This document shows, one piece after another, positions 791-63,688 of a stretch of DNA of 64,000 nucleotides; the stretch's first letter is position 1, and every line of letters starts with the position of its first letter. Made by a program: the position numbers and the translations under genes. The DNA is from Eledone cirrhosa (lineage: Eukaryota), in NCBI GenBank assembly GCA_964016885.1, contig OZ024741.1, forward strand, positions 117,986,001-118,050,000. The letters are read 5' to 3'. A model generated the notes under the pieces. The model made no database searches. It had not been told where the DNA came from and saw only the letters and a program-made list of their open reading frames with translations.

Positions 791-2782
791 CAAGAGGAGC
801 ACAATTCATGTCTTTAACAACAATAATAAGCATTTTGAGACACTTTCCCTGCTAAAGCACGTATTACCTTTGTGGTGTGTATGTCTGTGTGTGTAGAGAG
901 AGAGGGGTTCATGATAAGCTTCTCTGCTTTGCCCTATCAAGGAGGGCATCTCGCCATAAAACATTGCTTTAAAAAGGAACCCAAGATGAGCATGAAGCTT
1001 GCAAGGCTAACCTTTGCTTTAACAATGGATAAATTGATCAACAAGATCCCAAACTGCAAGTGGGGTGTAACTCGTCAAATTGGACCAAACAGTATTTCCA
1101 TTGGTTTTGCAATTTCTACCAGTCATAACTCCTGGCCGAAAGAACAATGTAAAATAAAGTGTCTTGCTCATGGCCATAATACATCACTCAGTCTGGGAAT
1201 CAAACTCACAACCTCATGATTGCAAGTTTGATTCAATTCTCTAACCCCTAAGCCACAGGGAAAATTATCTTAAAACACTTGGTGTAGTTATAGAGGGAAG
1301 GTAGGTGCTTATAATCTTTTTCTGGGCCTCTGAAACTGGTGGAGGGAGGATCGAGGTTATCTTCAAAATCCCCAAACCTGGCCTGAATGCTTTCAGCAGA
1401 ATGGACTCTACTAAAGTCACTCAGGTGTTAAATTGGATGATAGATTAACTCTACTACCTAAGATTCTATCTAGATTTAAACACTTCCAGTTTATCTCATT
1501 CTTCATTTTATAACAATATTATTGAGGTGGAGGAGAGTATTTCATTATCAATGATAACAAGATTATTTCCTTGAAGAGCTTTGCTATACTTGTTGCTCTT
1601 CTCATTGACCATCAGTGTTCAAAATGAATTATCAAACTACCTGAAAGACTAGATTTATGGACTTTATTATTTGTTAAGGCATGAAGGCGGTGGATAGACG
1701 GCAGTATCTGTAGAATGTCGGACAACTTGCTTTGTGGTATAGTTACATCCCTTGAGGATGACACTTTAATTCACATTGCTCCAGTTCACTCAGCTGTAGA
1801 AATTAGTTGCAATGTCACTGGTTGCCAAGCTGTATCGGCCTTTGGACTACAACGGTGATGTGGAGAGGGGAGACCTGTATGCATGGATGTCTGTTGATGT
1901 TCCACGAACAACCTTGCCTGGACTTGTGCCTTGGATGGGAACTTTTTAGGTGAAAATCCCATGGTCATCATTGAAGGTGGGGAGGGGGGTATTTACTCAT
2001 GTATGTGTGTGTAACTTAACTACTGGACCTACAAATCCTTATTTCCATATTTTTATGTTTTTCAATGAATGTTATAAGTAGTCAACAATTTGAAGGAATT
2101 ATTAAGCTGGTGTTCAGTACATAGCTTACCAGAGATATTCTTCCATAACATTATTTTTATTTAAATATGAATGGTTTAAAAACAAGAGGGTTTTCATCAT
2201 AGAATTGTTGTGGTTTTGGTTGGTTTGGCATCAAAAGGGTTTTAACATTATATTTATATTGGAAAAGATGCGACTTATACACAAGTATTATTTATATCGG
2301 TGGATTGGCAGTATCAGTAGAGGGTCGGACGCCATGCTTTGATACATAGAGTTATGGCCCTTGACATTCTCAGTTCAAATCCCGCCGAGGTCAACTTTGC
2401 CTTTCATCCTTACGGGGTCGATAAAATAAAATACCAGTAATGCACTGGGTAATTGCTGGCCTTGTGCCAAAAAGTAGAAACAATTATTTATATACGGCAT
2501 ATTAAATTGTACAAACATAATATATAATTTCAGTAAATTAAAATGTTGGTGCTTTATTTCCAAGAAACCACCCGCTCCTACATATAAGGAATTCTATGAT
2601 TTATTGTAAATAAATAAATAATAAAATAGAAAAGTGTGCATACCCATATGTAAAGTCACATATAGTTATAAATACACATGGATGTGTGTGTATACTCACA
2701 CATTCACACACAGACATACACAGTTATAAATACACATGGATATGTATGTGTGTGTATATACACACACATACACATATATATA

Positions 2783-2978
2783 TAACGAAGGAGTTGTGGT
2801 AAGGAACCAGATGGATCGTAACGCACCAGAGTACTCAATACTTAGGGTAGTAGAGTGGGTATTGGGAAAAAGTATGACTCCGACGGCAGAGCTCAAGCCG
2901 TTTCGACGGCTATTTCTTGAAATAGCTGTTGAAACGGCTTGAGCTCTGCCGTCGGGGTCATACTTTTTCCCATTTCCC
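2783..2978 (-). mobile_element. Fold-back element, copy A
   Basis: Hairpin 2863-2972 plus ~80-bp single-sided tail containing GAGTACTCAAT (2829-2839); (TA)n flanks. Confidence 0.75.
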
Positions 2979-3119
2979 ATATATATATATATATATACAC
3001 ACACAACAGACATACATACATAGTTATAAACACACATGGATATATATATATACAGACATACACTTGAATATATATATATATGCATATACACACACATACA
3101 TAGTTATAAATACACATGG

Positions 3120-3152
<33 letters not shown>

Positions 3153-4079
3153 TACATAGTTATAAAAACACAAGCACGCATACACATATAGACACACAGA
3201 TATGCTATAGAGTTGATGTCATATGATCTGTGTTGAATTGTGATTTTTCTGTAGTACAAACAATTTACTTTTTGCTCACTCATTCTCTCCTATACATACA
3301 TGTACTTATATATAATCACATACATATGTATACTAATACAAATATATAATATCACACGTGCAAACACATGCACACTCATATACATATTCATACCAATACA
3401 TAATCACATACATACGTATATACTAATATAGATAGATGATCATACACATTCATATACTAATACAAGTTTATAATCACATACACATTCATATATACTAATA
3501 TAAATACATTATCACACTCACATACACTATAAAAACATAATCACATACACACATACATATACTAATACAAATACATAATCATACATACGTACATATACAT
3601 ATTCATGCACTCACACACAGACACACACACATACACGGGCAGATGTCTACTAATACATATACATAACTATGCACTTATACATACATATACATAATATATA
3701 CATACATGCATATGCCAATACATATACATAATCACACACATACATATTCATACAATGAATCATGCATACACTCTCTCAGACAGACTTGCACTGTCTGTTT
3801 TTATAAACATGCACATACAAACAGCTTTTGATATACAAATGTACAGACACACCCATACACACACACACACAACCACAGACACACAAACACACAGACACAC
3901 AGACACACACTCACATACACACAAACACACAAACACAGACACACACAAGGATACATGTTGATACAGTCTGAGTGTATTGATTTTCCTATTTCCAAGACAT
4001 TCCATCGGCTTCGTCGCTTTAACGCTGCACACAACCATTGCTATATAACATACTTCCCATGCTGCTTTGCAGGTCAACG

Positions 4080-4916
4080 CTATCATCATCATCATCATCA
4101 TCATCATCACTAGCATTATCAATGCTATCACCACCATCACCACCATCACCACCATCACCACCACCATCATCACCACTACCATCATCATCACCACCACCAT
4201 CATCACCACCACCACCACCATCACCACCACCATCATCATCACCACCACCATCATCATCACCACCACCATCATCACCACCACCACCACCATCATCATCATC
4301 ACCACCACCATCATCACCACTACCATCATCATCATCACCATCACCATCATCACCACCACCACCATCATCATCATCACCACCACCATCATCACCACTAACA
4401 TCATCATCACCACCACCATCATCACCACCACCACCATCATCATCATCATCACCACCACCATCATCACCACTACCATCATCATCATCACCATCACCACCAT
4501 CACCACCACTACCATCATCATCACCACCACCATCACCACTACCATCATCATCACCATCACCACCACCACCATCATCACCACCACCATCATCATCACCACC
4601 ACCATCATCATCACTACCATCATCATCACCATCACCATTATCTTACCATCATCATCATAATCACCATTATCATCATCATCATCATTAATATCATTAACTT
4701 CAACACCACTACCATTATCATCATCATTACCTCACCACTACCATCATTTTCAAAGTCACTATCATCACCACCACCATCATCATCATCATTTCCATCATTA
4801 TCACTACCATCAACATTATCACTACCATCAACATTATCACTACCATCAACATTATCACTACCATCAACATCATCACTCTCATCACATCCCTACTCCACCA
4901 TCACCACCATCACCAC

Positions 4917-4951
<35 letters not shown>

Positions 4952-6754
4952 ATTCAATCTCAATGTTTGTCTTTAACCTCCATCCACAACAATAATGCGG
5001 TGAATTTTAACACCATCTTCATCACCACCACCATTACCATCACCTCCACCACCATCACCTCCACTACCACCATTACCACCACCACCACTACCATCATTAT
5101 CACCGCCACCATTACCATCACCTCCACTACCACCATTACCACCACCTCCACTACCATCATTATCACCACCGCCATTACCATCAGCACTGCCACCACCATC
5201 ACCTCCACTACCACCATTACCACCACCTCCACTACCATCATTATCACCACCAACATTACCACCACCGCCACCACCATCACCTCCACTACCACCATTACCA
5301 CCACCACCACCTCCACTACCATCATTATCACCACCACCATTACCACCACCACCATTACCACCACCTCCACTACCACCATTACCACCACCTCCACTACCAT
5401 CATTATCACCACCACTACTACCATCACCTTCACTACCACCATTACCACCACCTCCACTACCATCATTATCACCACCACCATTACCACCACCTCCACTACC
5501 ATCATTATCACCACCACCATTACCATCACCTCCACTACCACCATTACCACCACCACTACTACCATCATTATCACCACCACTACTACCATCACCTCCACCA
5601 CCACCACCTCCACTACCACCATTACCACCACCACCACTACCATCATTATCACCACCACCATTACCATCACCTCCACCACCATCACCTCCACTACCACCAT
5701 TACCATCACCTCCACTACCACCATTACCACCACCTCCACTACCATCATTATCACCACCGCCATTACCATCAGCACTGCCACCACCATCACCTCCACTACC
5801 ACCATTACCACCACCTCCACTACCATCATTATCACCACCACCATTACCATCACCTCCACCACCACCACCTCCACTTCCACCATTACCACCACCTCCACTA
5901 CCATCATTATCACCACCGCCATTACCATCAGCACTGCCACCACCATCACCATCTACATCACTGCAATCATCACTACCTACATCATCACAACCACCTCCAC
6001 AATCAGCACTGCCACCACCATCACCACCACCACCACCACCAACAACAGCAACACCACCATCATCATCATCACAATCATCATCATCTTTACTGTCAATACA
6101 AGCACACAACTGTCACCACCATCATTACTATAACTAAACAATCTCTTAACCATACCATTACTACTACTACTACTACTACTACTACATGGCCACTAAATTA
6201 TCATCATCACCATCATCATCGCCATCATCACTACCACCATCATCATTATCATCATCCTCATCTGAGTTCAAATCCCGCCGAGGTTAACTTTGCCTTTCAT
6301 CCTTACGGGGTCGATAAAATAAAGTACCAGTAATGTACTGGGTTTTTGCTGGCCTTGTGCCAAACGTAGAAACAATTATTATTAACATTACCATTAAGAC
6401 GGTTGCCAATTTGTATCAATTTTGTTCTCCTTCCTCTTGACATCATCATCATCACCAACACCACCACCACCAACATCATCATCATCAGCAGCAACAACAA
6501 CAACATCACTACTATCAAACCTCATCCATACCATCAAACATTATTGTTACCACTACAACACAATTACCTCTATCACAACCACCACTACAACCACCACTAC
6601 AACCACATCACTACTACTACTGCACCATTACCTCTATCATAACCACCACCACTACCACATCACTGCTACTACTGCAACACTACTACTACTACTACTACTA
6701 CAACACCACTACCACGACAACACAAGTACTATTTCTATCACATCAACCACCACC

Positions 6755-6785
<31 letters not shown>

Positions 6786-7354
6786 AAATACTACTATCAC
6801 CACAACACCACTACCTCCATCACAACCACCACTACTACTACTACAACACCACTACCACGACAACACAAGTACTATTTCTATCACATCCACCACCACTACT
6901 ACTACTACAACACTACTATCACCACTACCTCCATCACAACCACCACTACTACTACTACTACAACACCACTACCACGACAACACAAGTACTATTTCTATCA
7001 CATCAACCACCACCACAACTACTACTACTACTACTACTACTACTACTGCTACTACTACTACAACACTACTATCACCACAACACCACTACCTCCATCACAT
7101 CCACCACTACTACTACTACAACACTACTATCACCACAACACCACTACCTCCATCACACCCGCCACTACTACTACTACTACTACTATCACCACAACACCAC
7201 TACCTCCATCACATCCACCACTACTACTACTACTACACAACTATCACCACAATACCACTACCTCCATCAAATCCACTACCACCGCCACTATTACTACTAC
7301 TACTATTACTACTACTACACTACTATCACCACAACACCACTACCTCCATCACAT

Positions 7355-7403
<49 letters not shown>

Positions 7404-8530
7404 ACTACTATCACCACAATACCACTACCTCCATCACATCCACCACTACAAAACCACTATCACCACAACACAGCTAACACTACTACTACCACCATAACAC
7501 TACTACCACCAAAACACCACTACCAATACAATAAAACTGCCTTTATCACAACCATCACCACTACCATTACCACTACAAACACTACATCACCTCCACTACT
7601 ACACCACTACAACTGCAAGACTACTACACCCACTACTACTACAACACTACTGCCACCACTACCATTATTATAACCACTATTTTTACAACAGCCATTACTT
7701 CATGATATCCACTATTACAGCAACCACTACCACTGCTACTACCACCAATACCACAACTACCACTGCTACCACCACTACATATTATCCATTATTACTATTT
7801 CCGGGGGGGGGGGGTGAATTGGCTGAATTGGTAGAGGGTCGGACAATGTTTTGTCGCATAGAGTTACGGCCCTTTACATTCTGTGTTCAAATCCCGCTGA
7901 GGTTAGCTTTGCCTTTCATCCTCACGGAGTCGATAAAATAAAGTACCAGTAATGTACTGAGTAATTGCTGGCCTTGTTCCAAAAGTAGAAACATTTATTA
8001 CTATTACCATCACCATCACTACCATTGCCACCACTCTAGCTACCAATACCACAACTACAACACCATCACTACTAATACTACCATCAACACATCACCATCA
8101 CTAACTTTACAACAACTACCTCTACAACACCATCACTACCATACCACTACCACCAACACTACAACACCATCACTACCATTACCACAAATACTTCTACAAC
8201 ACCATCACCATCACTATCAATACTACCACCAATACTACATCACCATCACTACCATTACTACCGCAACTACCACCAGCACCACAACATCATCAATTGCTAT
8301 CATTCCTACCACCACCACACCAATACCACAACTACTACCTACACTACAGCACCATCACTACTGTTACAACAACTACCTCTACAACACCATCACCATTACT
8401 ACCATACCACTACCACTTACACTACAACACCATCACTATCATTCCTACCAATACCACAACTACCACCAACACTACAACACTACCACTACCATTACCACCA
8501 ATACCAATATCACAACTACCACCACCACCA
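4080..8530. repeat. Compound (ATC/ACC/ACT)n trinucleotide field with higher-order units, interrupted by SINEs
   Basis: Almost G-free + strand; source of the poly-T/I/S/P and poly-V/M/G ORFs. Confidence 0.95.
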
Positions 8531-9262
8531 GCAATCAACCTGTATGCAATCTTAGATTTTGGAGAAAGAAATAAAGACGTGATGGTCATACATGGAATGT
8601 CTTTATTTATAGGTCTGTTTTCTCAATCAGGACAGACTTGGAATGAAACAATGAAACCACTAGTTCTCATGTCTAAAAAGGAGTTTTATGTGGTCACTCA
8701 ACCTGCTAGAAATATCAGTCAAACCTGTTTTTAATCACACTCCTTCACCTTTAAAAAAGGACATATTGGAAACATTTATTCCGCAATCCCATTTGATTGG
8801 GAGATATTTTAACAACTTCTTTTTTCATTGAATTGTTTTTGTCAAACTGCTAAGTTAAGGGACATAAATACAGGTTCAGATATAAACACAGACATGGACA
8901 CACACACATATATATAATTGTTGCTACGTTTGTCACAAGGCCAGCAATTATCCAGTGCATTACTGGTGCTTTATTTTATTGACCCCGTAAGGATGAAAGG
9001 CAAAGTTAACTTCAGTGGGATTTGAACACATATAGATAGCATAATATAATAATTGTTTCTACATTTGGCATAAGGCCAGCAATTATCCCGGTGCATTACT
9101 GGTACTTTATTTTATCGACCCCGTAAGGACGAAAGGCAAAGTTAACCGTGTCAGGATTTTAACTCAGACCGGACACAACTCTTTGCTGGAAAGCATGGTG
9201 TCTGACACTCTACCGATACTGCCAGATATAATATAATGTGTGTGGTGTGTATGTGTATAGAC

Positions 9263-9358
9263 GTGTCCGAGGAACCTGCGAGTCCAGAGTCAGGTCGATC
9301 CATACACAGATCACACCTCAAGCTGTTCGCACGGGAAACAATTGTAACACACAATAAA
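9263..9358 (+). ncRNA. Variant hammerhead (CCGAGGA core, expanded stem II)
   Basis: GTGT-CCGAGGA-aCCTGCGA...TCGCAcGG-GAAA-CAATTG-TA-ACAC-acAATAAA; palindromic stem III ACAATTGT. Confidence 0.65.
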
Positions 9359-9412
9359 TTGAGTTCCGATGCATCACTGATTTTTCATTTTCCATTCTAT
9401 ATATATATAGGG

Positions 9413-14707: not shown

Positions 14708-15720
14708 TGGGCTCTTAGAAAACTAGGTGTTGACGAATGGCTTGTGAGAGCTATACAAGCCATGTATAAAGAAACAGTCAGCAAGGTTAGAATTAACAAC
14801 GAATATAGTGAAGAGTTTAGTCAGAACTGGATGGAAAAAGTTCAGAGAGCTTATACCACTATTAGCCGCTAAAGGGTTCTCCCTAAAAATGAAAGGCAGG
14901 TTGTATGATGCCTGCATACGAACAGCAATGTTGCATGGCAGTGAGACCTGGGCATTGTGTGCAGAGGATATACGCAGACTAGAGAGGAAGGAAGCTTGCA
15001 TGCTCCACTGGATGTGTAATAGTAATATACGTGAACGGCAAAGCATAAACGAACTAAGGAAAAAATTAGAAATAAGAGGGATCAGATGTTGTTTACTCGA
15101 GAGAAGGCTACGTTGGTATGGTCACGTGATGCGCATGAAAGACGACAGCTGTATAACAAAGTGCAGGGCAATAAAGATAGACGGTAGCCACGGAGTAGGC
15201 AGACCCAGAAAAACCTGGGACGAGCTGATAAATTCCGACCTCACACACTTACACCTCTCCAAGACAATGTCACTGGACCGAGACCTTTGGCGGTACTCAG
15301 TAATAGAGAAGACCCGCCTTACCTAAATACAAAGTAAAACCTACTACAGTCAGTAGGCATCTCTAACAAAATACACCCCCCGTCCCACCTCCCCCACCCC
15401 ATCCACACCGCCCCTTCAATGTAAAGTTATGTTGGTGCCACAACATCCAGGCCGAAACAAATGAGATCGTGTAGGTGTCACGACAAAAAAACACACAGTC
15501 CACGCTGTAATGTGGCCGTGTAGGCAACACTGTAAAGACCTCCCAGCCCCACACTGTAAATGTGGTTGGTGTTAGGAAGGGCATCCAGCTGTAGAAAACC
15601 CGCCAGACAGTCCTATGCGAGCAATGACAACCACTCTTGCCTCAAGTGGGAAAACTCCCGTCCAAACCCATGCAAGCGTGGAACATGGACGTTAAACGAT
15701 GATGATGATGATGATGATGA
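14708..15720 (+). mobile_element. RTE LINE 3' fragment with internal deletion, 3' UTR and (GAT)n tail
   Basis: WALRKLGVDEWLV joined to RTGWKKFRELIPLL...LHGSETW...RLRWYGHV...GRPRKTW. Confidence 0.9.
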
Positions 15721-16699: not shown

Positions 16700-18595
16700 T
16701 TTACAGTGACTACTGGGTGCTTTTTGTTGTGACACCTACACAACCACTTTACAGTGAGTACTGGGTGCTTTTTGTCGTGACACCTACATGACCACTTTAC
16801 AGTGGGTACTGGGTGCTTTTTGTCGTGACACCTACACAACCACTTTACAGTGAGTACTGGGTGCTTTTTGTCGTGACACCTACATGACCACTTTACAGTG
16901 AGTACTGGGTGCTTTTTGTCGTGACACCTACACGACCACTTTACAGTGAGTACTTGGTGCTTTTTGTCGTGACACCTACATGACCACTTTACAGTGAGTA
17001 CTGGGTGCTTTTTGTTGTGACACCTACAATCACTTTACAGTGAGTACTGGGTGCTTTTTGTCATGACACCTACACAACCAGTTTACAGTGAGTACTGGGT
17101 GCTTTTTGCCGTGACACCTACACAACCACTTTACAGTGAGTACTATGTGCTTTTTGTCGTGACACCTACACAACCACTTTACAGTGAGTACTGGGTGCTT
17201 TTTGTCGTGACACCTACACAACCACTTTACAGTGAGTACTATGTGCTTTTTGTCATGACACCTACATGACCACTTTACAGTGAGTACTGGGTGCTTTTTG
17301 CCGTGACACCTACACAACCACTTTACAGTGAGTACTATGTGCTTTTTGCCGTGACACCTACACAACCACTTTACAGTGAGTACTGGGTGCTTTTTGTCGT
17401 GACACCTACACAACCAGTTTACAGTGAGTACTGGGTGCTTTTTGCGTGACACCTACACAACCACTTTACAGTGAGTACTGGGTGCTTTTTGCCGTGACAC
17501 CTACACAAACACTTTGCAGTCTGTAGTGGGTGCTTTTTGCTGTGACACCTACACAACCAGTTTACAGTGAGTACTGGGTGCTTTTTGCCGTGACACCTAC
17601 AAAAACACTTTGCAGTGAGTACTGGGTGCTTTTTGCTGTGACACCTACACAACCACTTTACAGTGAGTACTGGGTGCTTTTTGCCGTGACACCTACACAA
17701 CCACTTTACAGTGAGTACTGGGTGCTTTTTGCCGTGTCACCTACACAACCACTTTACAGTGAGTACTGGGTGCTTTTTGCCGTGACACCTACACAACCAC
17801 TTTACAGTGAGTACTGGGTGCTTTTTGTCGTGACACCTACACAACCACTTTACAGTGAGTACTGGGTGCTTTTTGTCGTGACACCTACACAACCACTTTA
17901 CAGTGAGTACTGGGTGCTTTTTGCCGTGACACCTACACAACCACTTTACAGTGAGTACTGGGTGCTTTTTGCCGTGACACCTACACAAACACTTTGCAGT
18001 GAGTACTGGGTGCTTTTTGTCGTGACACCTACACAACCACTTTACAGTGAGTACTGGGTGCTTTTTGCCGTGACACCTACACAACCACTTTACAGTGAGT
18101 ACTGGGTGCTTTTTGCCGTAACACCTACACAAACACTTTGCAGTGAGTACTGGGTGCTTTTTGCCGTGACACCTACACAACCACTTTACAGTGAGTACTG
18201 GGTGCTTTTTGTCGTGACACCTACACAACCACTTTACAGTGAGTACTGGGTGCTTTTTGCCGTGACACCTACACAACCACTTTACAGTGAGTACTGGGTG
18301 CTTTTTGCCGTGACACCTACACAACCACTTTACAGTGAGTACTGGGTGCTTTTTGCCGTGACACCTACACAACCACTTTACAGTGAGTACTGGGTGCTTT
18401 TTGCCGTGACACCTACACAACCACTTTACAGTGAGTACTGGGTGCTTTTTGTCATGACACCTACACAACCACTTTACAGTGAGTACTGGGTGCTTTTTGC
18501 CGTGACACCTACACAACCACTTTACAGTGAGTACTGGGTGCTTTTTGTCGTGACACCTACACAACCACTTTACAATGTGGACCGGGCGCTTTTTA
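16700..18595. repeat. 48-bp minisatellite, about 39 copies, inside an RTE 3' tail (16538-18600, minus strand)
   Basis: Unit CCACTTTACAGTGAGTACTGGGTGCTTTTTG(C/T)CGTGACACCTACACAA; preceded by the (ATC)n-CGTTTTACGTCC...GCATGGGTT tail. Confidence 0.95.
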
Positions 18596-19789
18596 CAATG
18601 TCACCATCATGATCACTTTTCCGTGTGGGTTGGGGGCTTCAATGGATGTATACTTACATTACCCAAATATCTGATTCCATTTCTCTTCACAACATTCATC
18701 ACTTGCTCTATTCTCATCATCCTTTGCAATTCATTGTTTGTCTTCCTCTCTCATATCTTAAGGAAACAAACCATGTTCATATTTGTTGTATCTTAAATCA
18801 TGATTCAGAAGAGAAACCACCTAATTCTTTCCTCAATCTTCTTTTTATCTTTTTACCTCCTTTTGCCTTGGCTTGTTTCTGGACCATAGCATTGTGTAAA
18901 GAGTGTTTATAGGATAGGGGTGTCAAACTTATTTACTATGGTAGGCCAGATATAATATGAGTACAAAATATGCAAGCCAGATGAAACAAAAGGGTAAAGA
19001 TCCTACTTCAATCACAAATGACCACGGGTTTTGCATCTAGAAAGTTTCCTTCTAAGGCACAAGTCCTGACATGGTGCTTTTGTGGAAGACCATCAGTCGC
19101 CCATGCATACTAGTCTCTCCTCACCATTTAAGGGAGATTTGACTGGTTACTGCTATTTCTAGCAAATGGAGCAACCACATAGAGGCTTCTGGAATTTGAT
19201 AGTGAAATCTATTTTCCCCTTTTTTTCTACGGAAGAAAAATATATTGAGCAGAATCAACTAGTGTATAACAATATCAATAACAGCAACAACAACCCAAAT
19301 GTTTTTTTTTTAAATATTTTTTAATCCATATGCATTATTCATCTCTTAGTTTATTTATTTTATTTTATTTTTTGTTTTATCTCTTTGATATGACTTGTTC
19401 CTGTTCATTCTTGTGTAAATGGCATTTAGGTTTTGGGAAATGACATTCTGACCTTTCGTGCTTCAGTAGACATCGGTATTTTTAGTTGAATATCAAATGC
19501 CCATCTCTGCCTATAAATGTCATTGGAGTACAGGTTTTAACAAGTTTGGTGGCACCATTGCAAAGAATAGAAGAAAAAAAAAAGACATTTTTTTCTTTTT
19601 TGCTTTGTTAAGATATAAATCCAGGGACATGTAGATCCAGCAATTTTTTAAGTGGCTGATCAGATTAAGTGTTCATATTTTGTATGGTTCTAACTTCTTA
19701 AATCCAACACAACACTCTATGATACATTTTGAATCTGCTTCCCTTTCTGGCTCTATTTTGAAAGAAAGACACTGCCTATTCCAGTTGCC

Positions 19790-27629: not shown

Positions 27630-28995
27630 TATTTATTAAAATAACAGATTAAAGTTTAAGCAAAGAATCGCTGCTTTCACCCTTAACGGGATCTTCTGAA
27701 ACTAACAAAGTCAATCTGTAAACGCAGAACTGGATATTTCAAAAAACGTTGCAACCGGAGGAAGACGATACTTTGGTTCGTGGAAACGTTCGCTGGCTAA
27801 GAACGGGAAAAAAGGAATATAATACGTCATTAATAGGAGCGGTGAAAAACAATTACGCGCAAAGACAGAACCACGTTTATGGTATAAAAGAGGTCGTAGA
27901 CTAATGTTCTCTTAGGTGGTGCATAGAGACGTTCTCTGGCAATGAACGAAAAAAACGAAGATAATACGTCATATGTGGAGCGTGGAGAACAATAGCACGC
28001 AAAGACAAAACCACGTAAATGGTATAGCAGAAGTCGTAGACTAAAATTCTAACTAGGAAACCGAATGAATCTCCGTTACAGAGTTAAGAACAAAGTAAAT
28101 AAATACAATACAGAAGTAATAGAAATAAATAAATACATACACGCAAACACATACATACATACACAAGCATACGCAAAAACTTACCATAGGTAAACAAAAC
28201 CACGCACATATAAATGTGTGTGTGTGTGTAAGCGTGTATACAAATAAATAAATAATTATATAAACGTATATAAATAAATAAATACGTATATAACAAGCGC
28301 ACACACATACCTACATGTAAATACACGAATGTTCGGAGACGTAAGTCAACCAAAACATGAAGTACACATATACACACGCCCTACATACGTACGAACCTGC
28401 ATACTCACACAGACGCAAAACTCACGTATACACATAGCCGAACCATATGTACCAGAATATATAAAAAAATTATACGCCATAACAATCAAATATACGTACA
28501 AGAAGGTATACGTACCTTCACAAAACATACGGATAATATATACTTACCTATACAAATAAGTAAAGGTATAAACAAAACATATACTTAGCTCCCACATCGA
28601 GATGTAAAATATCCACGTATAGATCGTACTATCCGTTAGGGTATAATGTGGGGCTGTAATACAAGAAAGTGTTGTGCAATTTATGTTTACAAGCCGAAAT
28701 TGCCTCAGATTTTTTGTTTAAGATGTGGTCTGTGGCGTAGAGTATTTCCAGGGCCTCAGCGGCGCAGAGGTCACATGGTCTTTTATTTCCGTTATACGAT
28801 CTAGCCCTAGCTAGGATCTCCCAGTGTAACTTATATTGGGTGTGGCTGTCTTTTAGACTCCAGATATAAGCTGAAAGTGATGTCATATTCCTTCTTAGAG
28901 GGTAACGAAAAGAATGGGTATGCATGTAAAGACGCTGCTTGAACCCTATGTAGGCCCTACGGGGCGTAGGTGTTACAACCTTACATTTGTAGACA
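27630..28995 (-). mobile_element. 5'-truncated Penelope-like element (GIY-YIG fragment plus 3' UTR)
   Basis: YKCKV...[16 protein letters not shown]...[11 protein letters not shown]...WEIL...[12 protein letters not shown]...LNKKSE...CKH; same EN type as ORF 33458-34459. Degenerate hammerhead-like CAGAAGA..GAAA near 27675-27698, then AATAAA and (TA)n. Confidence 0.8.
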
Positions 28996-29196
28996 ATGTT
29001 AGTGTATATATGTGTGTATATATATGTGTGTATATATATATGTGTGTATATATATATGTGTATATATATATATGTGTATATATATGTGTATATATATATG
29101 TGTATATATATGTGTATATATGTATATGTATGTATATGTGTATGTATATATATATATGTATATGTGTATGTATATATATATATGTATATGTGTATG

Positions 29197-32194: not shown

Positions 32195-35100
32195 TTGGTT
32201 GTATACCAACACCTCAGTATGCAGATTGGAGCACTCGACGAAGTGCGCAGGTTGGTTTGGTTACTCCGGAGTAATGTAAAATAAAATAAAATAAATAAGT
32301 CAAATGTTTAAAATTTAGCTTCGTTTATTACTGCTATATATATTTCAGTGACAGCCATCATTGGCTGTGACCTCTTCAGGCAGTCCGAATTAGTGTGGTA
32401 TAGACAAGTACATATGTTGTTGAGGTGTATATCTTTGTCAATACTCTGATATGCCCAGTTCCTGGTTGGGTTGTTATTTCACTGAGAAACTGGAATCATA
32501 TGAATTCAAACAAACGAATTTCAGTGTCAAAGGCCTCTTCTCCTCTCATTGGTCAGTTGTTAGAACATTCCTCATTCAAAAGTCTATAGAAATTCGTTCT
32601 GAGGCAAGCCAATCTGTAGTTGTTGTCCTTGTTATTACTATTACGTACATCTGACCTCAATTCTTGTGTTGGTATGTTGTTATTGTTGGAGTTAGGTAAA
32701 AAAAATTGATAAAGTGGTAGAAGGAATAAGATGGTAAAGGAACAAAATAACAAAAAAATGTCAAACTTCCCATTGGTCAGTTTTGAGAGCATCCCTCAGT
32801 CCAAAGTCTAGAAATTCTTTCTGGGGTGAGGCTCCCTGTAGTGTTTGTGTTTGCTATTGTTAAGTACATCTGACCTCTACCCTTATTTTGGTAGTGTTGT
32901 TGGTGTTGTGTTTCTTCATCCCTCCTGCCACCATCTCCCGTGGTGGTGGTGGTGGGGGGGGGGGGGGTTCTTCCATGTATATGAAGAAATATAAGGCAAT
33001 AAAATGATTCAAATAAAGTAAGATAAAGTGTGTGTGTGCTATAACCAATCTCAATGTCAGAAATATGTTGGATAGATTGGTATGAGGAACAAGATGGTAA
33101 AAGAATAAGATAATCAAATAAAATGTGTTTGTGTTATAACCAATCTCAACTTAAAAATAAATGTAAGGTGATAAAGTGAAGAGAACAGAAATCAAATAAC
33201 AAATTAATGAGAAATCAAGATTTAAAAATTGAAAAATTGAAAAATCACAAATCAAGTAAATTAAAATGTGTGTGTTATAAAGATGTTGGCCAAATTATAA
33301 TGGCTGTGTCAGAATCAATCTCTAGGCTATCATGGTGTCTGCTCAGCCTGGGTTGGTCCTTATGGCTTGAGGGGAGTTCCAATCTAGGGTGTTGTTATTG
33401 CCCATATAGCTTGAGGGAGGTCTGGCCGAGAGGTGTCTACATGTTCTGGAGAAGTCCCTATAGCTTGAGGGGAGTCCACATCTTCTTGTGTTGCTTCGGT
33501 CCATATATCTTGAGGAAGGTCCCAGCCCTGAGGTGTCTGCATGTCCCGAAGAAGTCGGTTCTGAGGTTTATCATGCCGCTTCCACCTCTTAGTATCTCGA
33601 GGGTCTCGTTCAGGCATAGTTTGCATATGCAAGATCCCCTTTTATCGGGTGGTACTTTCCTGATTATGTACCAGGCCAGAGAGTACGGGGTCCTGTCCAG
33701 CTTAAGCTTCCAGATCAGGTCGGAGAGAGCCGTGCTTTTTCTTTTGGCCTCCTTATTGAAGGAATGGCGATGGTTGTGCCAGCGGTCTTTAAAGCTCGTT
33801 GATGTCGCTCCTATGTAGAGGTGTTCGGAGTTGGGAGTTTTAACCCTACAACCGTATATTAGGTTCTTCTTAAGGCATTCATTACCAAGGGGGCATGATT
33901 CGGGGTTTCTGCAGTTGCAGAGGGTGGTCGACCTCTGCGTGCCTAGATTGGGGTTCCCGTTAGGTGTTACATGGCGGTCTTCCCCCAGGTATGGTGGGGG
34001 GTCCGCGGGTCTGTTTGGGTTTCTTGGGTGGGCACTGGGTCTCCCCTTCCCTCCTTTCACATGGTTCTGCTGAGTGCTTGTATTGCCATCTTCTGGTTGT
34101 GTGTGGTTTTTAAGCCTACTCCTGTTGATGCTAGCTATGTGTTGGGCCAGATTTCTCGTGGTGGAATACGAGAGCTTCACAGTGTGTCTGTTGAAGATCC
34201 TGTGGTATCTATGGTCCCTCGGGAAGCATTTATCAAGTGCTCCAAAGAATGATCGGGCCAAGCTGTTCTTTAGGGCCGCTGAGTAGGGTGGGTTGTACCA
34301 CATGATTTTTCTGTGTCTCCTCGTATATGTGTGGATCGGGGGCGTTGTGAGTTGTTGGAGATTTGTTGGGTTGCTGGTGGTTCCCGCACTGTTGCTTTCC
34401 CTTTGGGCGCTATGCGTTTTGCTATCTTCACGGCCCGAATCTGTGGAGTGGTCCGCCATTCCCCCCCCCCACGTGTCCTGCGGTTGTGATCGTGGGTCCT
34501 GGGGTGGTTAGCGTCACCCCTGAGACTGCTACTCATATTGGGTTTCATCTCATGGTTAAGCGTACTAGTCACCAACGCCCGTGTGGTGGTGACGGGCTCA
34601 TGGTGCCTATTTGTTTCTGTTCTGCCTGTATTGTTAGGGTTTCCCCCCCCCCCCCGGGCAACGCGGGTGTGGGTGTCCGTTAAGCCATCCCCATCCCGGC
34701 GTTTCGGACTATATGTTATATTTTGGCCATGTGCCGCCTTATTTAGAGCTGCGTTGTAATATTCCGCATTGTTATCGAATATTTCCTTACTTGCGGACAG
34801 GCTGGAGATCCTGTCCGAGACACTCTTCACCACGGCCTTGGTTATGGATCTAGGGTGGTTTGATTTGGCGTTAACATACACGAGTTTCTCGTTGGGCTTG
34901 TGGTAGGTGTAGTATTGTTCGGTGTTCAGGTTTAGGGTGGTGTCTAGGAAGTTAACTACCTTCCTATTTGGGTCTAGTTCTATACTGAGCCCCTGGTTCT
35001 TAAAGGAATGGCGAATACGCCTCCTCATTCCCTCCAACATATTGGTGCTGTGGTCATATACTGTGAATAGAGCATCGTCACGATATAATCTGCCGCCCAG

Positions 35101-35785
35101 GCAGGGGATTTCATCTTTTATCTGCTTCAGCAGGAAGAGCCCAACCAGGTCCGTTACCTGTGCTGAGTCACTGGAGCCCATCGTGATGTCAAAGTTATTT
35201 AGCCAATCACTCCTGGTCCATAGGTCTCCATCGAAATGGATTACAGTCTTTCTTGCGGCATGGATGATGCTCACCTCCTCGGGTTAGGTCCGTATTGGAC
35301 ATCGCTAAAAATAGGGCCTTATTGAGTACTATGGGTGAGATTGAGGAGTAGTAGCTTGCGATATCCAATTGTATAAAGCTGGTCTTACTTTTCTCATGTA
35401 GTATCTTAAACCATTCTATTACTTCTCCCGTGCATGACCATTGCTGTAATTTAGTTTTCTTCCGAAGCTTGGGCAAAATCCTATCTAGTATTCTTTTACT
35501 GACGATCCCTAGGTCAGATCTGGAGGGGGCTATTAGTCTGACAGGGAGGTCGGACTCAAAGTTTGGCTTGTGATCTTTAAGGGTATTCTGCGGCTCCCTT
35601 GTTTGGTATGGGGCCGTCCTGTCCTCTATGCCGAGTCTAGATATAATCCTGTAAGCTGTGGCATTGATCTCATCCAGGGTAGATCCAGGATTTTTTTTGT
35701 AGCACTTCCTCAGTTCCCTGAAAATTAGCTTATTATACAGTTCAGTGTTCATGTTGTAGAGGTTGTTGGTTTTGTCAGCAAAATG
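32195..35785 (-). mobile_element. Penelope-like retroelement (RT plus C-terminal GIY-YIG endonuclease), 5'-truncated and frameshifted, with 3' UTR/pLTR
   Basis: Three overlapping minus ORFs: 35752-35207 (FIQLDIASYYSSI, RT motif A); 35274-34270 (FDITMGSSDSAQVTDLVG, LYRDD, VNFLDTTLNL, YHKPN...SNHP); 34459-33458 (WYNPPYS, CNCR..CPL..CL, IYG...YIG, FKDRWHNH, CKLCLNE, CRH). Flanked by TA-rich tracts; hammerhead and AATAAA lie downstream. Confidence 0.92.
32330..32384 (-). ncRNA. Type I minimal hammerhead ribozyme in the Penelope 3' region
   Basis: Minus strand: ACTGC-CTGAAGA-GGTCACAGCCA atga TGGCTGTCACT-GAAA-TATATA-TA-GCAGT-AATAAA. 5-bp stem I, long stem II, palindromic stem III. Confidence 0.85.
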
Positions 35786-35828
35786 TATGTATATATATAT
35801 ATATATAGGTATATATGTGTATATATAT

Positions 35829-36912
35829 CATCATCATCATCATCATCACCGTTTTACGTCCGTTCTTCCACGCTAGCATGGGTTAGACGGGTTGTCCTGT
35901 TGTGGGCAGTGTCTGGTTGGCTGACCATGCCTTGCTCATACAGGAACTGATTTGGCTTGATTTCTACAGCTGGATGCCCTTCCTAACACCAACCTCATTT
36001 ACAGTGAGTGCTGGGTGCTTTTTCGTGGCGCCTACACGTCCACTTTACAGTGTGGGCTGGGTGCTTTTTTGCCGTGGCACCTCCACGACCACCTTGCAGT
36101 GTTGGGCGTGGGGGCATATTGTCTATATGCTTCAGCTTGAACCCATGGGAGGTCGGGTACTCTGTATTACTGTGTGACGCCAGAGGTCACGGTCGTGTGT
36201 CATCGCCTTTGAGAGGTGTAATTGGGTACGGTCGGCTTTTATCACCTCATCCCAGGTCATCTTGGGTCTCCCTACTCCGCGGTTTCCATCGACTTCTAGT
36301 GCTCTGCACCTTTTTATGCAACTGTCATCCTTCATACGCATCACATGTCCATACCAATGCAACCGCCTCTCCTGCACACAGCATTTGATTCCTCTTATGC
36401 TCAGTCTCCCTCTCAATTCATTTATGCTTTGTCGTTCACGTATATTACTATTACACATCCATCGGAGCATGCAGGCTTCGTTTCTCTCTAATCTACGTAC
36501 CATGCAACATCGCTGTTCGGATACATGCATCATACAGTCTGCCTTTGATTTTGAGGGAGAAGCCTTTTGCAGCTAGCAGTGGTAGTAGTTCCCTAAACTT
36601 CTTCCATCCCGTTCTTACCCTAGTTATTGTACTTTCTGAACACCCACTTTTAGCTAGGTACTTTTCCTGTAACTGCCTCACAAGGAAGAGGGCATCAGTG
36701 GTGCCTCTTCCTGGCACAAACCCAAATTGCATCTCATCTAGTTTCACCTAGTCCCTAATCAACTGTGCTATAACTCTTTGTGTTACTTTCAGGACCTGGT
36801 CCATCAGCTTTATACCTCTATAGTTTCCTCTATCTAGTGCATCACCTTTACCTTTGTAGCAGTTGACAATGATGCTACTGCACCAATCCTTTGGTATGAC
36901 TCCTTCTAGTAT
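35829..36912 (-). mobile_element. RTE LINE copy with an internal deletion of the RT core
   Basis: Colinear with 61302-63100 but lacks the equivalent of 62144-62841; reads QEKYLAK-SGCSES in frame. Confidence 0.9.
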
Positions 36913-45909: not shown

Positions 45910-46459
45910 GAGCTGTGCTTGGTAATGCAGAGACAACACACAAGTGCTTTAGGAATGATAAAAAACAAAATATGTACAGACCAAACATCCAGGATTTAGA
46001 AATATGCACAACATAGAGAAAAATAACACAACTTGGCACTGCACACAAATATTATGCAGAGTACTTTCTATACGGTAGAAACAATAACACAAAGATATAA
46101 TACTGCACATACCCAATGTACACAAAGTTGTTGTTGGTAATACAATGACAGCACATAGCTACTCTGGGAATGAAAAAACAAAAGAAAACTGGTATTAATA
46201 ACCAAAGTTACAGCATTTATAAATATTCAGAAAATACTACTATTGACACTGCATAAACATTGCATAGAAAATGCTTCAATACAATATAAATGATAGCACC
46301 CAAAACAATTTTGCATGTACCCAAGATACACAGAGCTAGGATGATGATGATGATGATAAAGATTTCAATTGTTTTCCACAATGGCACCACATGAAAGGGA
46401 TATTACAAGAAAATGTTACATAGTGCGTGTGTGTATATACATATATATATATCTTGGGA

Positions 46460-46555
46460 GGTCCGACGAGCTTTTGATTCCAGAATCGGGCCAGATCAAT
46501 ACATACAGATCAAACCTTGAGCTGATCAGTGAAATATGCGTCACCAATCAATAAA
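46460..46555 (+). ncRNA. Variant hammerhead (CCGACGA core, expanded stem II), homologous to 9263
   Basis: GGT-CCGACGA-GCT...AGT-GAAA-TATGCG-TC-ACC-aatcAATAAA; the internal CCAGA(G/A)TC(A/G)GG..GATC..ACAGATC..AGCTG block is shared with 9263 and 47646-47800. Confidence 0.6.
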
Positions 46556-47166
46556 CGTAATAAAGACATAACAAATCGTCCTTTTAATATTTGGATTGGC
46601 AGCATCGGTAGAGGGTCGGACGCCTTGCTTTGCAAGCATAGAGTTATGCCCCTTTATGATCTGAGTTCAAATCCAGCCGAGGTTAACTTTGCCTTTTATC
46701 CTTACAGGGTCGATAAAATAAAGTACCAGTAATACTCTGGTATAATTGCTGGCCTTGTGCCAAAAGGAGAAACAATTATTATTATATATATATATATATA
46801 TATATATTATTATTATTATTATCATCATCATCACTATTTAACATCCATTTTTCCATGCTTGCATGGGTTATATATATATATATATATATGAGTGGAGGTG
46901 CGTGGCCTAGTGGTAAGGGTATTGGACTTACGATCATAATGTCATGAGTTTGCTACCTGGGCTGGGTTGCGTGTTGTGTTCTTGAGTAAACCACTTCATT
47001 TCATGTTGTTCCAGTACTCAGCTGAAATTGAATACTAGCAATAGCTGGGGGTTTAACCCTGTGATAGACTAGAGTCCTGTCCAGGGGAGAGTCTTGCACC
47101 CTTAGTCTCTTCATGCCATGGAACCAGGATAAGCATTGGCCTAACAAGTCTTCTTGCTTAGGACAG

Positions 47167-47645: not shown

Positions 47646-47935
47646 GATCTGGCCCGACTCTGGAATCAATAGCTCATATAACCTCTGCTGTTGTAAAGAC
47701 AGAATGAACATATAAAGCATAGAAATGTCTGTAATCTTTCCCAATACAGATCGAACAATGAGCTGATCAATAGCGAAACACGCGTCACCAATCAGTAAAC
47801 GTAATGAAGGCTTAACAAATCATCCTTGTATTATTATATTATGCTCTTTTTAGCTCTACATCTTCACTGACGTGAACCTAAACATCGAGTGCTCACCTGG
47901 GTGAACCTACAGTAACCACACGTTATACTCCCTGG
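47646..47935 (+). mobile_element. Rearranged third copy of the variant-hammerhead element (5' half inverted) with 3' tail
   Basis: 47740-47800 reads ...GAGCTGATCAATAGC-GAAA-CACGCG-TC-ACC. 47646-47685 is the reverse complement of the 5' half (GCTATTGATTCCAGAGTCGGGCCAGATC). Tail ends at (TA)n. Confidence 0.6.
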
Positions 47936-47948
47936 ATATATATATATA

Positions 47949-56083: not shown

Positions 56084-56781
56084 GTTTTAATCAGCTCTGA
56101 ATTAACCATTAAGCAAAATAGACATATTTAGAGCCTCAAAATAATTAAAAGGTATGTGTGTTATTCTTTTGTAAGGCCATCTGGTGGATTTTTTAAACAA
56201 GGGGCCTCCAAGCTTTATACAGCTTTAGGCTTCCCCATGTTTTAAACTAGCATTGGGTGTGATTTTAGGGAGATTTGGCTACTATTTCTAACTGACCTAG
56301 CAACTGCATAAAGGCTCCTTCATTTGCTTGTAACGAATAGTATGTGTTCTTTCTTGCAAATAAACTAGCAGTAATACCTATTGAGGCAAGCAAAGTTAAT
56401 GTACTCTGTCTAGAGAAAGAATGCATTATGGGGTCGATAAAATAAAGTACCAGTAATGCACTGGGTATTTGCTGGCCTTGTGCCTAAAGTAGAAACAATT
56501 ATCTATGGTATAGTTTGAACTCATGACTATGTGGTTAGTAGCTCATCAACAGGGCTGGATAAAGTCTTTTTCAGGTCCTAAGTATTTAAAAGATTATGGT
56601 GTTCCCCTCCCCATATATAAGGTGTGCAAAGAAAACATTTTTTTTCAAATGACAAATACATTTAATTTGAATAATATGGTGCCCTTAACATGTTCTTATG
56701 ATACCCTAAGTATGTCCTTATGGTTTTCCTCTTACCTTGATGCCCTAAACACGTCCTTATAGTTTTCCTCATACCTTGATA

Positions 56782-57344
56782 CCCTAAACATGTGATTATG
56801 GTGACCTTCTTCCATTACTGCCCTAAACATGTGATTATGGTGACCTTCTTCCATTACTGCCCTAAACATGTGATTATGGTGACCTTCTTCCATTACTGCC
56901 CTAAACATGTGATTATGGTGACCTTCTTCCATTACTGCCCTAAACATGTGATTATGGTGACCTTCTTCCATTACTGCCCTAAACATGTGATTATGGTGAC
57001 CTTCTTCCATTACTGCCCTAAACATGTGATTATGGTGACCTTCTTCCATTACTGCCCTAAACATGTGATTATGGTGACCTTCTTCCATTACTGCCCTAAA
57101 CATGTGATTATGGTGACCTTCTTCCATTACTGCCCTAAACATGTGATTATGGTGACCTTCTTCCATTACTGCCCTAAACATGTGATTATGGTGACCTTCT
57201 TCCATTACTGCCCTAAACATGTGATTATGGTGACCTTCTTCCATTACTGCCCTAAACATGTGATTATGGTGACCTTCTTCCATTACTGCCCTAAACATGT
57301 GATTATGGTGACCTTCTTCCATTACTGCCCTAAACATGTGATTA
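56782..57344. repeat. 39-bp minisatellite, about 14.4 identical copies
   Basis: Unit CCCTAAACATGTGATTATGGTGACCTTCTTCCATTACTG; preceded by diverged ~41-bp units from ~56700. Confidence 0.95.
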
Positions 57345-58241
57345 TTTTAATTGAGTCATGCTCATCACTTTAATCCCAGTCATTGGATATGAATAAAACA
57401 TGCAGACTTCAGTCTAGATTACCAGCTAATTGGTTGTTGTTTAACCCCAGGTCACCCTTGATCCAACAGACCTATGATCATAGCCATTCCGTCTTCTTAA
57501 GGGCATCAACAATAACATTCTTAATGTGTCCTTTTTTATATTTTAAAGCAGTGGGGTGTGATTTGAGGTAGACTTCATTGCTATTCCTAGCTGATTATCA
57601 TCATATATAATTCTACCTGTGGACATCCTGTTTTTTTAAGGGCATCTAGGACTACATATTCTGATGCATTCTTTCCTTCTGTTAAGAGGGTAGAATATGA
57701 TTTGAGGGTGACTTCACTGCTATTTTAAAAAGGTTGAATGACCACATAAAAAGCTCTTAATATTTATTGCTGGTCATTATAAATCTTGGCATAACTATAA
57801 AGTATAAACTCTTAAGATCAACTTTAATGTCAAGTGTTATTTTGTAGGATTTTAAAATAGTGGAAGGTACATGGGCTAGTGGTTATTGTAAGGCTTAGGT
57901 TCAATTCCAAGGAGTGGGTGGCCCACCTTCTCCTTGAGCAAGGCACTTCATTTCACATTTCTCCAGTCAACTCATTTGAAAATAAGTACCAGCTTAGTGC
58001 CCATGAAACTGAGATGAGCTCTAAGTGACTCAGAATGTACAGAGCTGGAACAGATACTGCAAGGTGTGTCATCCAATGCTCTAACAATTCAACCAATCCA
58101 CCATACCTGGGCTGGTATTTTTTATCAACCTTGAAAGAATGAAAAGCAAAGTTGACCTTGATGGGAGTTGATCTCAGAGCAAAGAGACAGAACAAATATC
58201 TCAAGGCATTTAACCATTCAATGCACCATCATCACCATCAT

Positions 58242-63448: not shown

Positions 63449-63552
<104 letters not shown>

Positions 63553-63688
63553 AGAGAGAGAGAGTGAGAGAGACATATAATACACTAACCTATCTATCAA
63601 TCTTTGTCTCACAAATATTTTAGTCTGTTATATTATCTTATATATTAGATTATACTACATTATATATGTTTCCCATCTATTTTTGTAG

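Follow-up and report, generated by a model that had tools for sequence, protein, structure and literature searches.

The window analysed here is a stretch of 64,000 nt of the Eledone cirrhosa genome (GCA_964016885.1, contig OZ024741.1, positions 117,986,001–118,050,000, forward strand). At 9263 and again at 46460 it carries a unit resembling a hammerhead ribozyme, in which the core reads CCGA(G/C)GA with C at position 4 where the consensus has U, and in which a long segment separates this core from the GAAA box. The question raised by this locus is whether such units are decayed hammerheads or, as the original prediction had it, one distinct ribozyme subfamily defined by C4 together with a conserved domain inserted in stem II. 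Both diverged copies were located exactly as described, each with stem I, GAAA, palindrome, UH and AATAAA, and a third was recognised (Table 1). Judged from its sequence, the unit at 9263–9358 is a hammerhead motif of type I that lies within the terminal repeat (pLTR) of a Penelope retroelement (PLE) resembling Neptune.

Table 1. Positions of the three hammerhead copies in the window and of the predicted parts of copy 1
Feature	Positions	Strand	Details
Copy 1, subfamily A, 5'-truncated 3' end of a Neptune-like Penelope	9257–9399	+	(TG)n and (TA)n on either side
Copy 1, stem I 5' strand GTGT	9263–9266	+	Partner ACAC 9347–9350; from sequence and covariation
Copy 1, core box CCGAGGA (C3-C4-G5-A6-G7-G8-A9)	9267–9273	+	U4C is 9268
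Copy 1, helix II, 61 nt	9274–9334	+	Basal 9-bp irregular stem, 2-nt bulge, conserved element, apical GAUC/GAUC hairpin
Copy 1, conserved element, 5' half (CAG AG UC AGG)	9285–9294	+	
Copy 1, conserved element, 3' half (CCU, bulged C, GA, G, CUG)	9316–9325	+	
Copy 1, GAAA box	9335–9338	+	Stem III palindrome ACAATTGT 9338–9345
Copy 1, GAAA, palindromic stem III (ACAAUUGU) and UH	9335–9346	+	Predicted cut after 9346
Copy 1, AATAAA	9353–9358	+	Directly 3' of stem I; also in short-arm families
Copy 2, subfamily B	46456–46590 (about)	+	Core CCGACGA 46463–46469
Copy 3, inverted 5' piece, subfamily B	47646–47734	-	Core positions 3–7 changed to TATAT at 47680–47676
Copy 3, 3' piece with long 'tail'	47744–47936	+	

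Copy 1 was up to 96% identical to other copies in the genome and aligned with copy 2 at 75% over 67 nt (E 2e-5). A covariance model trained on 32 representatives, copy 1 (9257–9366) among them, found exactly three sites in the window: 9257–9366 (81 bits), 46453–46562 (67 bits), and 47719–47806 (26.5 bits). Compared to contigs from two runs of one sample, both of which carry the family, copy 1 has private changes at 9303, 9313, 9320, 9331, and 9332. The change at 9320 (G>A) disrupts one pair of the conserved element, and the stem II register previously proposed for this copy (TGCGA/TCGCA with a bulged c) rests on the private changes at 9331–9332. The UH of copy 1 is T9345 A9346. In copy 2, stem I is GGT (46460–46462) with ACC (46543–46545), helix II is 61 nt long, GAAA lies at 46531–46534, UH is T46541 C46542, and AATAAA lies at 46550–46555. 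This copy is more decayed, with a 3-nt loss in basal helix II, a 4-nt gain in the loop, and a change of C15.2 to T. The stem II of subfamily B had been read as GCTATTGAT; most B copies have GCTTTTGAT. What had been taken as a split copy at 47646–47790 is indeed a third copy but proved to be a head-to-head inversion of a minus-strand and a plus-strand piece, and its changed core positions 3–7 make it uninformative on position 4. The window copies are decayed insertions. A SINE-like repeat was observed not more than 50 nt to one side of both hammerhead copies (8930–9230 and 46595–46790) and likewise at many other loci, which probably reflects a common preference for (TA)n-rich sites.

Three helices surround the predicted core, which is open at helix I (type I), and stems I and II and the stem III palindrome covary, so that the early remark on stems differing between copies with pairing kept is borne out. 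C3, G5, A6, G8, A9, G12, A13, A14, A15.1–U16.1, and H17 are all present in the window copies, and their columns are invariant or near-invariant. At position 4, both window copies and their subfamilies have C. The G10.1–C11.1 pair is A·G in subfamily A (including copy 1) and G–C in subfamily B, and is formed in 15 of 32 representatives. Helix I is short. Stem III has two base pairs and is closed by a palindrome, which is kept through two-sided changes (variants CAAUUG, CGCGCG, CAUAUG, and CGAUUG); in cofold predictions, the palindromes of two of five units paired between strands. No hammerhead family appeared among the 150 Rfam matches listed (of 160) for the window or among 114 matches in five loci, in agreement with the expectation that standard searches would miss the motif. 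The matches listed were microsatellite-driven miRNA noise, with no hammerhead, SECIS, or SRP among them.

The proposed association with Penelope is supported by the full-length locus L061, which came from ten loci extended outward. Here, the subfamily A motif stands in both pLTRs (5421–5285 and 811–673), with its two copies about 4.6 kb apart, around a broken ORF for a reverse transcriptase (RT) followed by an endonuclease. Loci L066 and L068 have the order endonuclease–UTR–motif, and the same order was found for subfamily B in L064, where the endonuclease end and its L061 counterpart share 58% identity across 38 aa. The order of RT and C-terminal GIY-YIG-type endonuclease was derived from tblastn pieces in L061 and L066, with YRDD and CCHH-like residues. 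The ORF of L061 starts about 175 nt 3' of the motif and contains a DKTG motif, YRDD, and a Cys-rich linker CNC-x5-CP-x4-C before the endonuclease. A DKG-type motif and a Cys-rich linker are described as features of Neptune-type elements, although the linker printed for these in the accessible text, CX2-5CxxC, differs in spacing from that of L061 (PMC8557442). The clade name Neptune is a putative assignment by motifs. Pfam gave weak matches for aligned homologs (RVT_1 in 3 of 17, GIY-YIG in 1 of 17) and none for the protein pieces of L061 and L066; a PDB search with the element protein returned only a weak retron RT match (E 0.0087). The closest named homolog was from Argonauta hians (40% identity). 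The copies have head-to-head inverted partners, 5' truncation, two alternative 3' ends (an optional 'tail'), and (TA)n flanks; inverted partners, alternative 3' ends and (TA)n flanks are the signature described for PLEs. An assignment to non-LTR retrozymes was rejected for the copies examined, which are scattered as truncated forms or head-to-head pairs deriving from a coding element of about 4.6 kb. An ORF in L337, beside a subfamily B copy, was considered as the protein of that copy and rejected because it belongs to another family. For this reason, the RT tree, which took in only local sequences and unnamed homologs with no reference Neptune, Nematis, or Poseidon, cannot tell whether the long-arm elements form one clade.

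Several other Penelope-like elements were observed. A near-complete Neptune-like ORF in three frames (RT, Cys linker, endonuclease) occupies 33458–35827 (minus strand) of the window; at the end of this related element, whose RT is 53–57% identical, stands a canonical U4 hammerhead (32335–32379, minus strand; 32330–32384 with flanks) that has AATAAA and a helix II of 26 nt. The 3' part of another family (endonuclease end and long UTR), related to L337, L340, and L342, lies at 27700–29000 (minus strand). The L337 element terminates in CAGAAGA, a very short variant of the core whose helix II measures 10 nt. L066 also contains a different, Poseidon-like Penelope ORF at 2464–4444 (minus strand; RVT_1 E 1e-7, GIY-YIG E 4e-5), head-to-head with its subfamily A element. 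The rest of the window includes ORF fragments at 14748–15326 (plus), 61648–63584 (minus), and 36060–36400, which we take to be RTE-type LINE reverse transcriptase, as well as minisatellite arrays at 17527–18612 (unit about 48 nt) and 56732–57373 (unit about 39 nt) and a long trinucleotide-rich tract at 3760–8730.

The 'inserted domain' of the original prediction reads in the alignment as a continuation of helix II, which is prolonged to about 60 nt as an irregular hairpin. From the base upwards it consists of a 9-step stem, a 2–3-nt bulge, CAG/CUG, a 2x1 AG/G loop, U–A, Y–G, a bulged pyrimidine, RGG/CCU, and an apical hairpin, usually GAUC/GAUC; the segment is 57–63 nt long with about 25 paired or near-paired steps. 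The AG/G loop and the bulged pyrimidine are near-invariant, and compensatory changes occur in the surrounding pairs. Among 28 representatives chosen via the insert, 81% of cells were paired, with 70 two-sided changes vs. 34 in shuffles; the invariance of the element in this set is circular. With 32 representatives, of which 15 came from families that an insert-free pattern had brought in, 84.6% of cells were paired with 100 two-sided changes vs. 38.7 in shuffled alignments, and slid controls gave 29–46%; these counts are of sequences rather than events, the shuffle control ignores kinship, and the structure was hand-drawn from the same sequences. The covariation predicted for the unit was found within these limits. 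In this set, the helix of the conserved element was 91% paired, with compensatory changes C–G to U–A (6), A–U to G–C (4), and G–C to A–U (2) in families recovered independently of the insert, and the U–A beside the AG/G loop was kept in 32 of 32. RNAalifold recovered the register of the conserved element (11 pairs); stems I and III and the basal stem were absent from its prediction. Single-sequence folding was not unusual in any of five units (z -0.6 to -1.35), and the structural evidence is therefore covariation, not stability.

The distance from the element to GAAA was 9 nt in 107 of 109 scorable units, a further 44 units without a scorable element standing outside this count. The 5' offset of the element was 10–12 nt and its apex 23–29 nt. 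A coding role of the segment was rejected, as its apex may be 25, 26, or 27 nt long, each of these lengths being common, and the ORF begins farther downstream. A SECIS, for which Naiad elements had given a lead, was rejected by inspection: the quartet is missing, and the endonuclease of the element is C-terminal. We know of no fit of the conserved element to SRP helix 8, sarcin-ricin, K-turn, or the 11-nt tetraloop receptor.

The search covered the 3.0-Gb genome of this one species. A DNA search gave 3,654 and 1,413 first-look candidates for copies 1 and 2, of which 40 were scored for each. The insert pattern alone had 6,006 exact matches (0 for the reversed-pattern control), and the core with the start of the insert had 8,982 (control 386). 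A pattern with no insert letters, consisting of the core, a gap of 50–76 nt and the GAAA box, yielded 10,344 exact long-helix-II cores (control 162). Gaps of 22–49 nt gave 3,304 exact matches (control 1,756), and short-arm gaps of 12–36 nt gave 103,556 (control 132). Overall, the genome contains at least 113,000 exact hammerhead-core motifs (103,556 short-arm and 10,344 long-arm). By eye, the conserved element was present in 88 of the first 100 long-gap matches listed, the other 12 being other long-arm families or chance; these are the first sites on contig 1, include head-to-head pairs, and are not independent. The lengths of helix II across families were 12, 20, 26, 30–36, 44–47, 51, 56–65, and about 75 nt. 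Given this spread, the 60-nt arm belongs to the upper end of the lengths seen and stands out by a single conserved element. One abundant family (L259, L260, L263–L275), nearly all U4, has a 47-nt helix II with an apical GAUC/GAUC hairpin and without the AG/G element. Pattern matches outside this genome (1 in a metagenome and 21 in viral contigs) were rejected as chance, with no core alongside.

When positions 4–5 were left free, the first 100 of 799 subfamily B matches had CG (70), TG (10), CA (11), or other letters (9); TG and CA being about equal, this is as expected of CpG decay from a C4 founder. For subfamily A, the first 100 of 304 matches had CG (61), TG (26), CA (8), or other letters (5), consistent with a C4 majority and a U4 branch. 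On these counts, C4 is the majority state of subfamilies A and B and not decay. The long-arm family as a whole is mostly U4: T was found in 66 and C in 21 of 87 core-plus-insert matches listed (after 13 unrelated ones had been dropped from the 100 listed). Among insert-free long-gap matches listed, U4 stood in 70 and C4 in 18 of 88 by eye, from which roughly 2,000 long-arm C4 copies can be extrapolated genome-wide. Chance decay of C4, which the original prediction named as evidence against itself, is thus not the case for the two subfamilies, but the family consensus is indeed U4. For the two largest clusters, mismatches at the other five positions of the 5' box numbered 10 in 180 cells and 4 in 305, with a core regex tolerating up to two mismatches.

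Further C4 groups exist among the long-arm matches beyond A and B. In a tree of 125 units, the C4/U4 label requires 10 changes, at least seven of them forced by supported branches, and the deepest split separates subfamily A from subfamily B, U4 lineages being placed between the two; this tree has 112 columns, an unsettled bootstrap and a midpoint root, its sample is enriched for A and B, and some T4 tips are decay. C4 also occurs in 11,531 of the 103,556 short-arm motifs, which have no insert (control 67). These belong mostly to one 20-nt-arm family, also found beside Neptune-like ORFs, and to a 12-nt-arm family. A single subfamily defined by C4 plus insert is therefore not supported, given the U4 majority among long-arm matches, the repeated changes on the tree, and the short-arm C4 motifs. 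The idea that the insert compensates for U4C was rejected likewise, since U4 is the majority among long-arm copies and C4 is common in short-arm copies without insert. As the sequences stand, the long helix II and U4C are two independent features, and U4C appears to have arisen repeatedly.

The 20-nt-arm family (L313, L327–L336) has a high copy number, a C4 majority, mismatched 10.1/11.1, and a covarying helix II; it is the best substrate for testing U4C by itself. In the long-arm C4 groups, position 7 was G, C or A and rarely U, and the commonest short-arm U4 core was CUGAUGA. A coupling of positions 4 and 7 is possible, though CCGAUGA occurs in the 20-nt family.

The motif resembles the PLE hammerheads of Cervera and de la Pena (2014; PMC4209133) in its occurrence in both pLTRs, short helix I, tiny palindromic helix III, and AU-rich 3' flank, as well as in the many consensus families per genome, head-to-head pairs and mostly truncated copies. 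Published PLE hammerheads had been supposed to be minimal, with a short stem II. At 7–8 bp, their helix II is in fact longer than in canonical hammerheads, yet far shorter than here (PMC4209133). The 56 representatives in Fig. S3 of that paper have helix II of about 3–8 bp with loops of up to 9 nt and, as printed, none has C4 or the conserved extension, in contrast to the arm of about 60 nt with a near-invariant internal element found here; in this the claim of an unusual stem II stood. G10.1–C11.1 is often absent here, unlike in the hammerheads of the same paper, and Xenopus tropicalis has about 9,000 hammerheads (PMC4209133) compared to more than 110,000 here. Poseidon of Anolis carolinensis shares RT with C-terminal GIY-YIG, a pLTR hammerhead, two alternative 3' ends, and AT-rich targets, but its ORF starts at stem II, whereas here the ORF starts far 3' of the motif and the extension is noncoding; the accessible text reports no extension of its stem II (Frangieh et al., 2024; PMC11167929). 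Core halves lying far apart are known from the discontinuous Clec2 hammerhead and the Naiad 'HHR_half_core'. Clec2 is of type III with a helix I of 150–1500 nt, while the intervening segment here is a covarying helix II; Naiad half-cores are 35–50 nt apart and are not described there as structured, while covariation indicates structure here.

In the literature searched, a U4C hammerhead was found only in PMC3088659, which cites a viroid variant considerably less active in vitro and sufficient for infectivity (Ambros and Flores, 1998); no CCGANGA hammerhead was found in the accessible literature. In the viroid, U4C is a rare variant; here it is the majority in several high-copy subfamilies, with at least 11,531 short-arm and roughly 2,000 long-arm copies. 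The accessible parts of PMC6155905 and bioRxiv 10.64898/2026.07.22.740005 hold no description of such motifs. The literature searched gave no description of these motifs in an octopus or cephalopod Penelope, and the alignments of Lunse et al. (2017), reportedly a large survey of PLE hammerhead variants, may include such cases. Repeat libraries may contain these elements without RNA annotation. What appears new is a long-helix-II variant of known PLE hammerheads and a repeatedly spread U4C core.

The full element has a motif copy on either side of its ORF, and in a read-through transcript the two copies would pair their palindromes and cleave after UH, as published for PLE hammerheads; the unit is predicted to be slow and dimer-type in cleavage. 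In metazoan PLE hammerheads, helix III is a tiny palindrome, and cleavage is weak and takes place in dimers (PMC4209133, PMC6765202). Cleavage has been assayed in the presence of the element's protein for a single PLE ribozyme, the anole Poseidon hammerhead, and depends on that protein (PMC11167929). An element such as the AG/G loop, U–A pair, and bulged pyrimidine at 9 nt from GAAA, fixed, sequence-specific and non-Watson–Crick within pairs that change compensatorily, would suit a protein or tertiary contact. We hold with moderate confidence, by analogy and from sequence patterns, that the fixed-distance helix II element is where the RT-endonuclease protein of the same retroelement binds. Several points count against it. 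Reverse transcription of the anole element depends on RNA 3' of +20, beyond where stem II starts (PMC11167929), which means that the protein does not necessarily bind at stem II; and the 103,556 short-helix-II motifs without the element, from successful families, indicate that it is not generally required. The pairing of G10.1–C11.1 in only 15 of 32 representatives and the lack of a pile-up of copy ends at the cut site also weigh against this reading.

The same fixed 9-nt offset from the core would also suit an RNA–RNA tertiary receptor, either for the strand leaving stem I (AAUAAA, +7 to +9) or for the dimer partner, and tandem G–C pairs adjoining a bulge can accept adenosines. Such a receptor would stand in for the contact between loops I and II, which is missing from minimal PLE hammerheads, and would speed protein-free cleavage; helices I and II run alongside each other in the active fold (PMC4209133). 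We consider this reading unlikely. AAUAAA is present in short-arm families too and lies at about +14 in one element-bearing family, no covariation with outside segments was seen, and no known receptor was matched by inspection.

Besides binding by the element's protein, the proposed course of events includes attenuation of the ribozyme. U4C became the majority several times in long- and short-arm families with the remaining core kept, and by analogy with the viroid it likely attenuates cleavage without killing it, because C4 subfamilies with different stems keep the other core letters. It would then be tolerated, with fast cleavage unneeded for insertion, while the elements spread as thousands of mostly 5'-truncated copies. 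With G10.1–C11.1 often unpaired in addition to U4C, subfamily A could be very weak. An alternative that we judge distinctly unlikely takes this further: the C4 lineages would have lost useful catalysis altogether, the ribozyme being a dispensable passenger and the hairpin being kept for another reason or by recent common descent. The anole hammerhead is dispensable for insertion in vitro, where its catalytic mutants still insert, and no read ends at the cut (PMC11167929). No cut-site footprint was found in this genome either, and 10.1/11.1 is frequently mismatched: for subfamily A and its sister, about 5 of 100 matches broke within the 15 nt shown, spread from -3 to +3; for B-type copies (junction-enriched by the pattern), breaks were even from -5 to +7 with 2–4 at the cut by eye; and 1 of 30 loci started near the cut, with no clear excess of copy ends there. 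Against a passenger, the C4 subfamilies A, B, C, and I and the 20-nt family differ in all three stems yet keep C3, G5, A6, G8, A9, GAAA, UH, and a palindromic stem III; loss of function should let other founder core letters drift, rather than position 4 every time.

It is improbable that the extension acts at the DNA or pre-mRNA level, as part of an internal pLTR promoter or as a splice acceptor with the hairpin incidental: pLTRs contain promoters and the intron end of Drosophila Penelope maps at helix I in the accessible literature, YAG opens the element, the core CUGAN lying 18 nt upstream in the manner of a branch sequence, and subfamily A often carries the change CAG>TAG, but other families have TGG or AAG with compensating 3' changes, which break YAG and keep the pairing, and two-sided changes favour RNA structure.

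Taken further, the protein-binding reading leads to a broader picture, which we offer as tentative and rather doubtful: an octopod Penelope clade with a ribonucleoprotein hammerhead, in which the helix II element would let the telomerase-like RT trigger cleavage only after binding its own RNA, U4 being thereby freed to change. If so, the genome would hold a natural series of more than 110,000 hammerheads with graded cores and arm lengths. About one-fifth of the motifs (11,531 short-arm C4 and 10,344 long-arm, of about 114,000) would escape descriptors that require CUGANGA and a short helix II. PLE hammerheads cleave poorly in vitro, one is protein-dependent, and insertion in vitro proceeds without cleavage. 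This genome has matched sister subfamilies with U4 or C4 (e.g., subfamily A and its U4 sister) and with or without the element, which would allow a direct test of protein assistance and of selection on catalysis.
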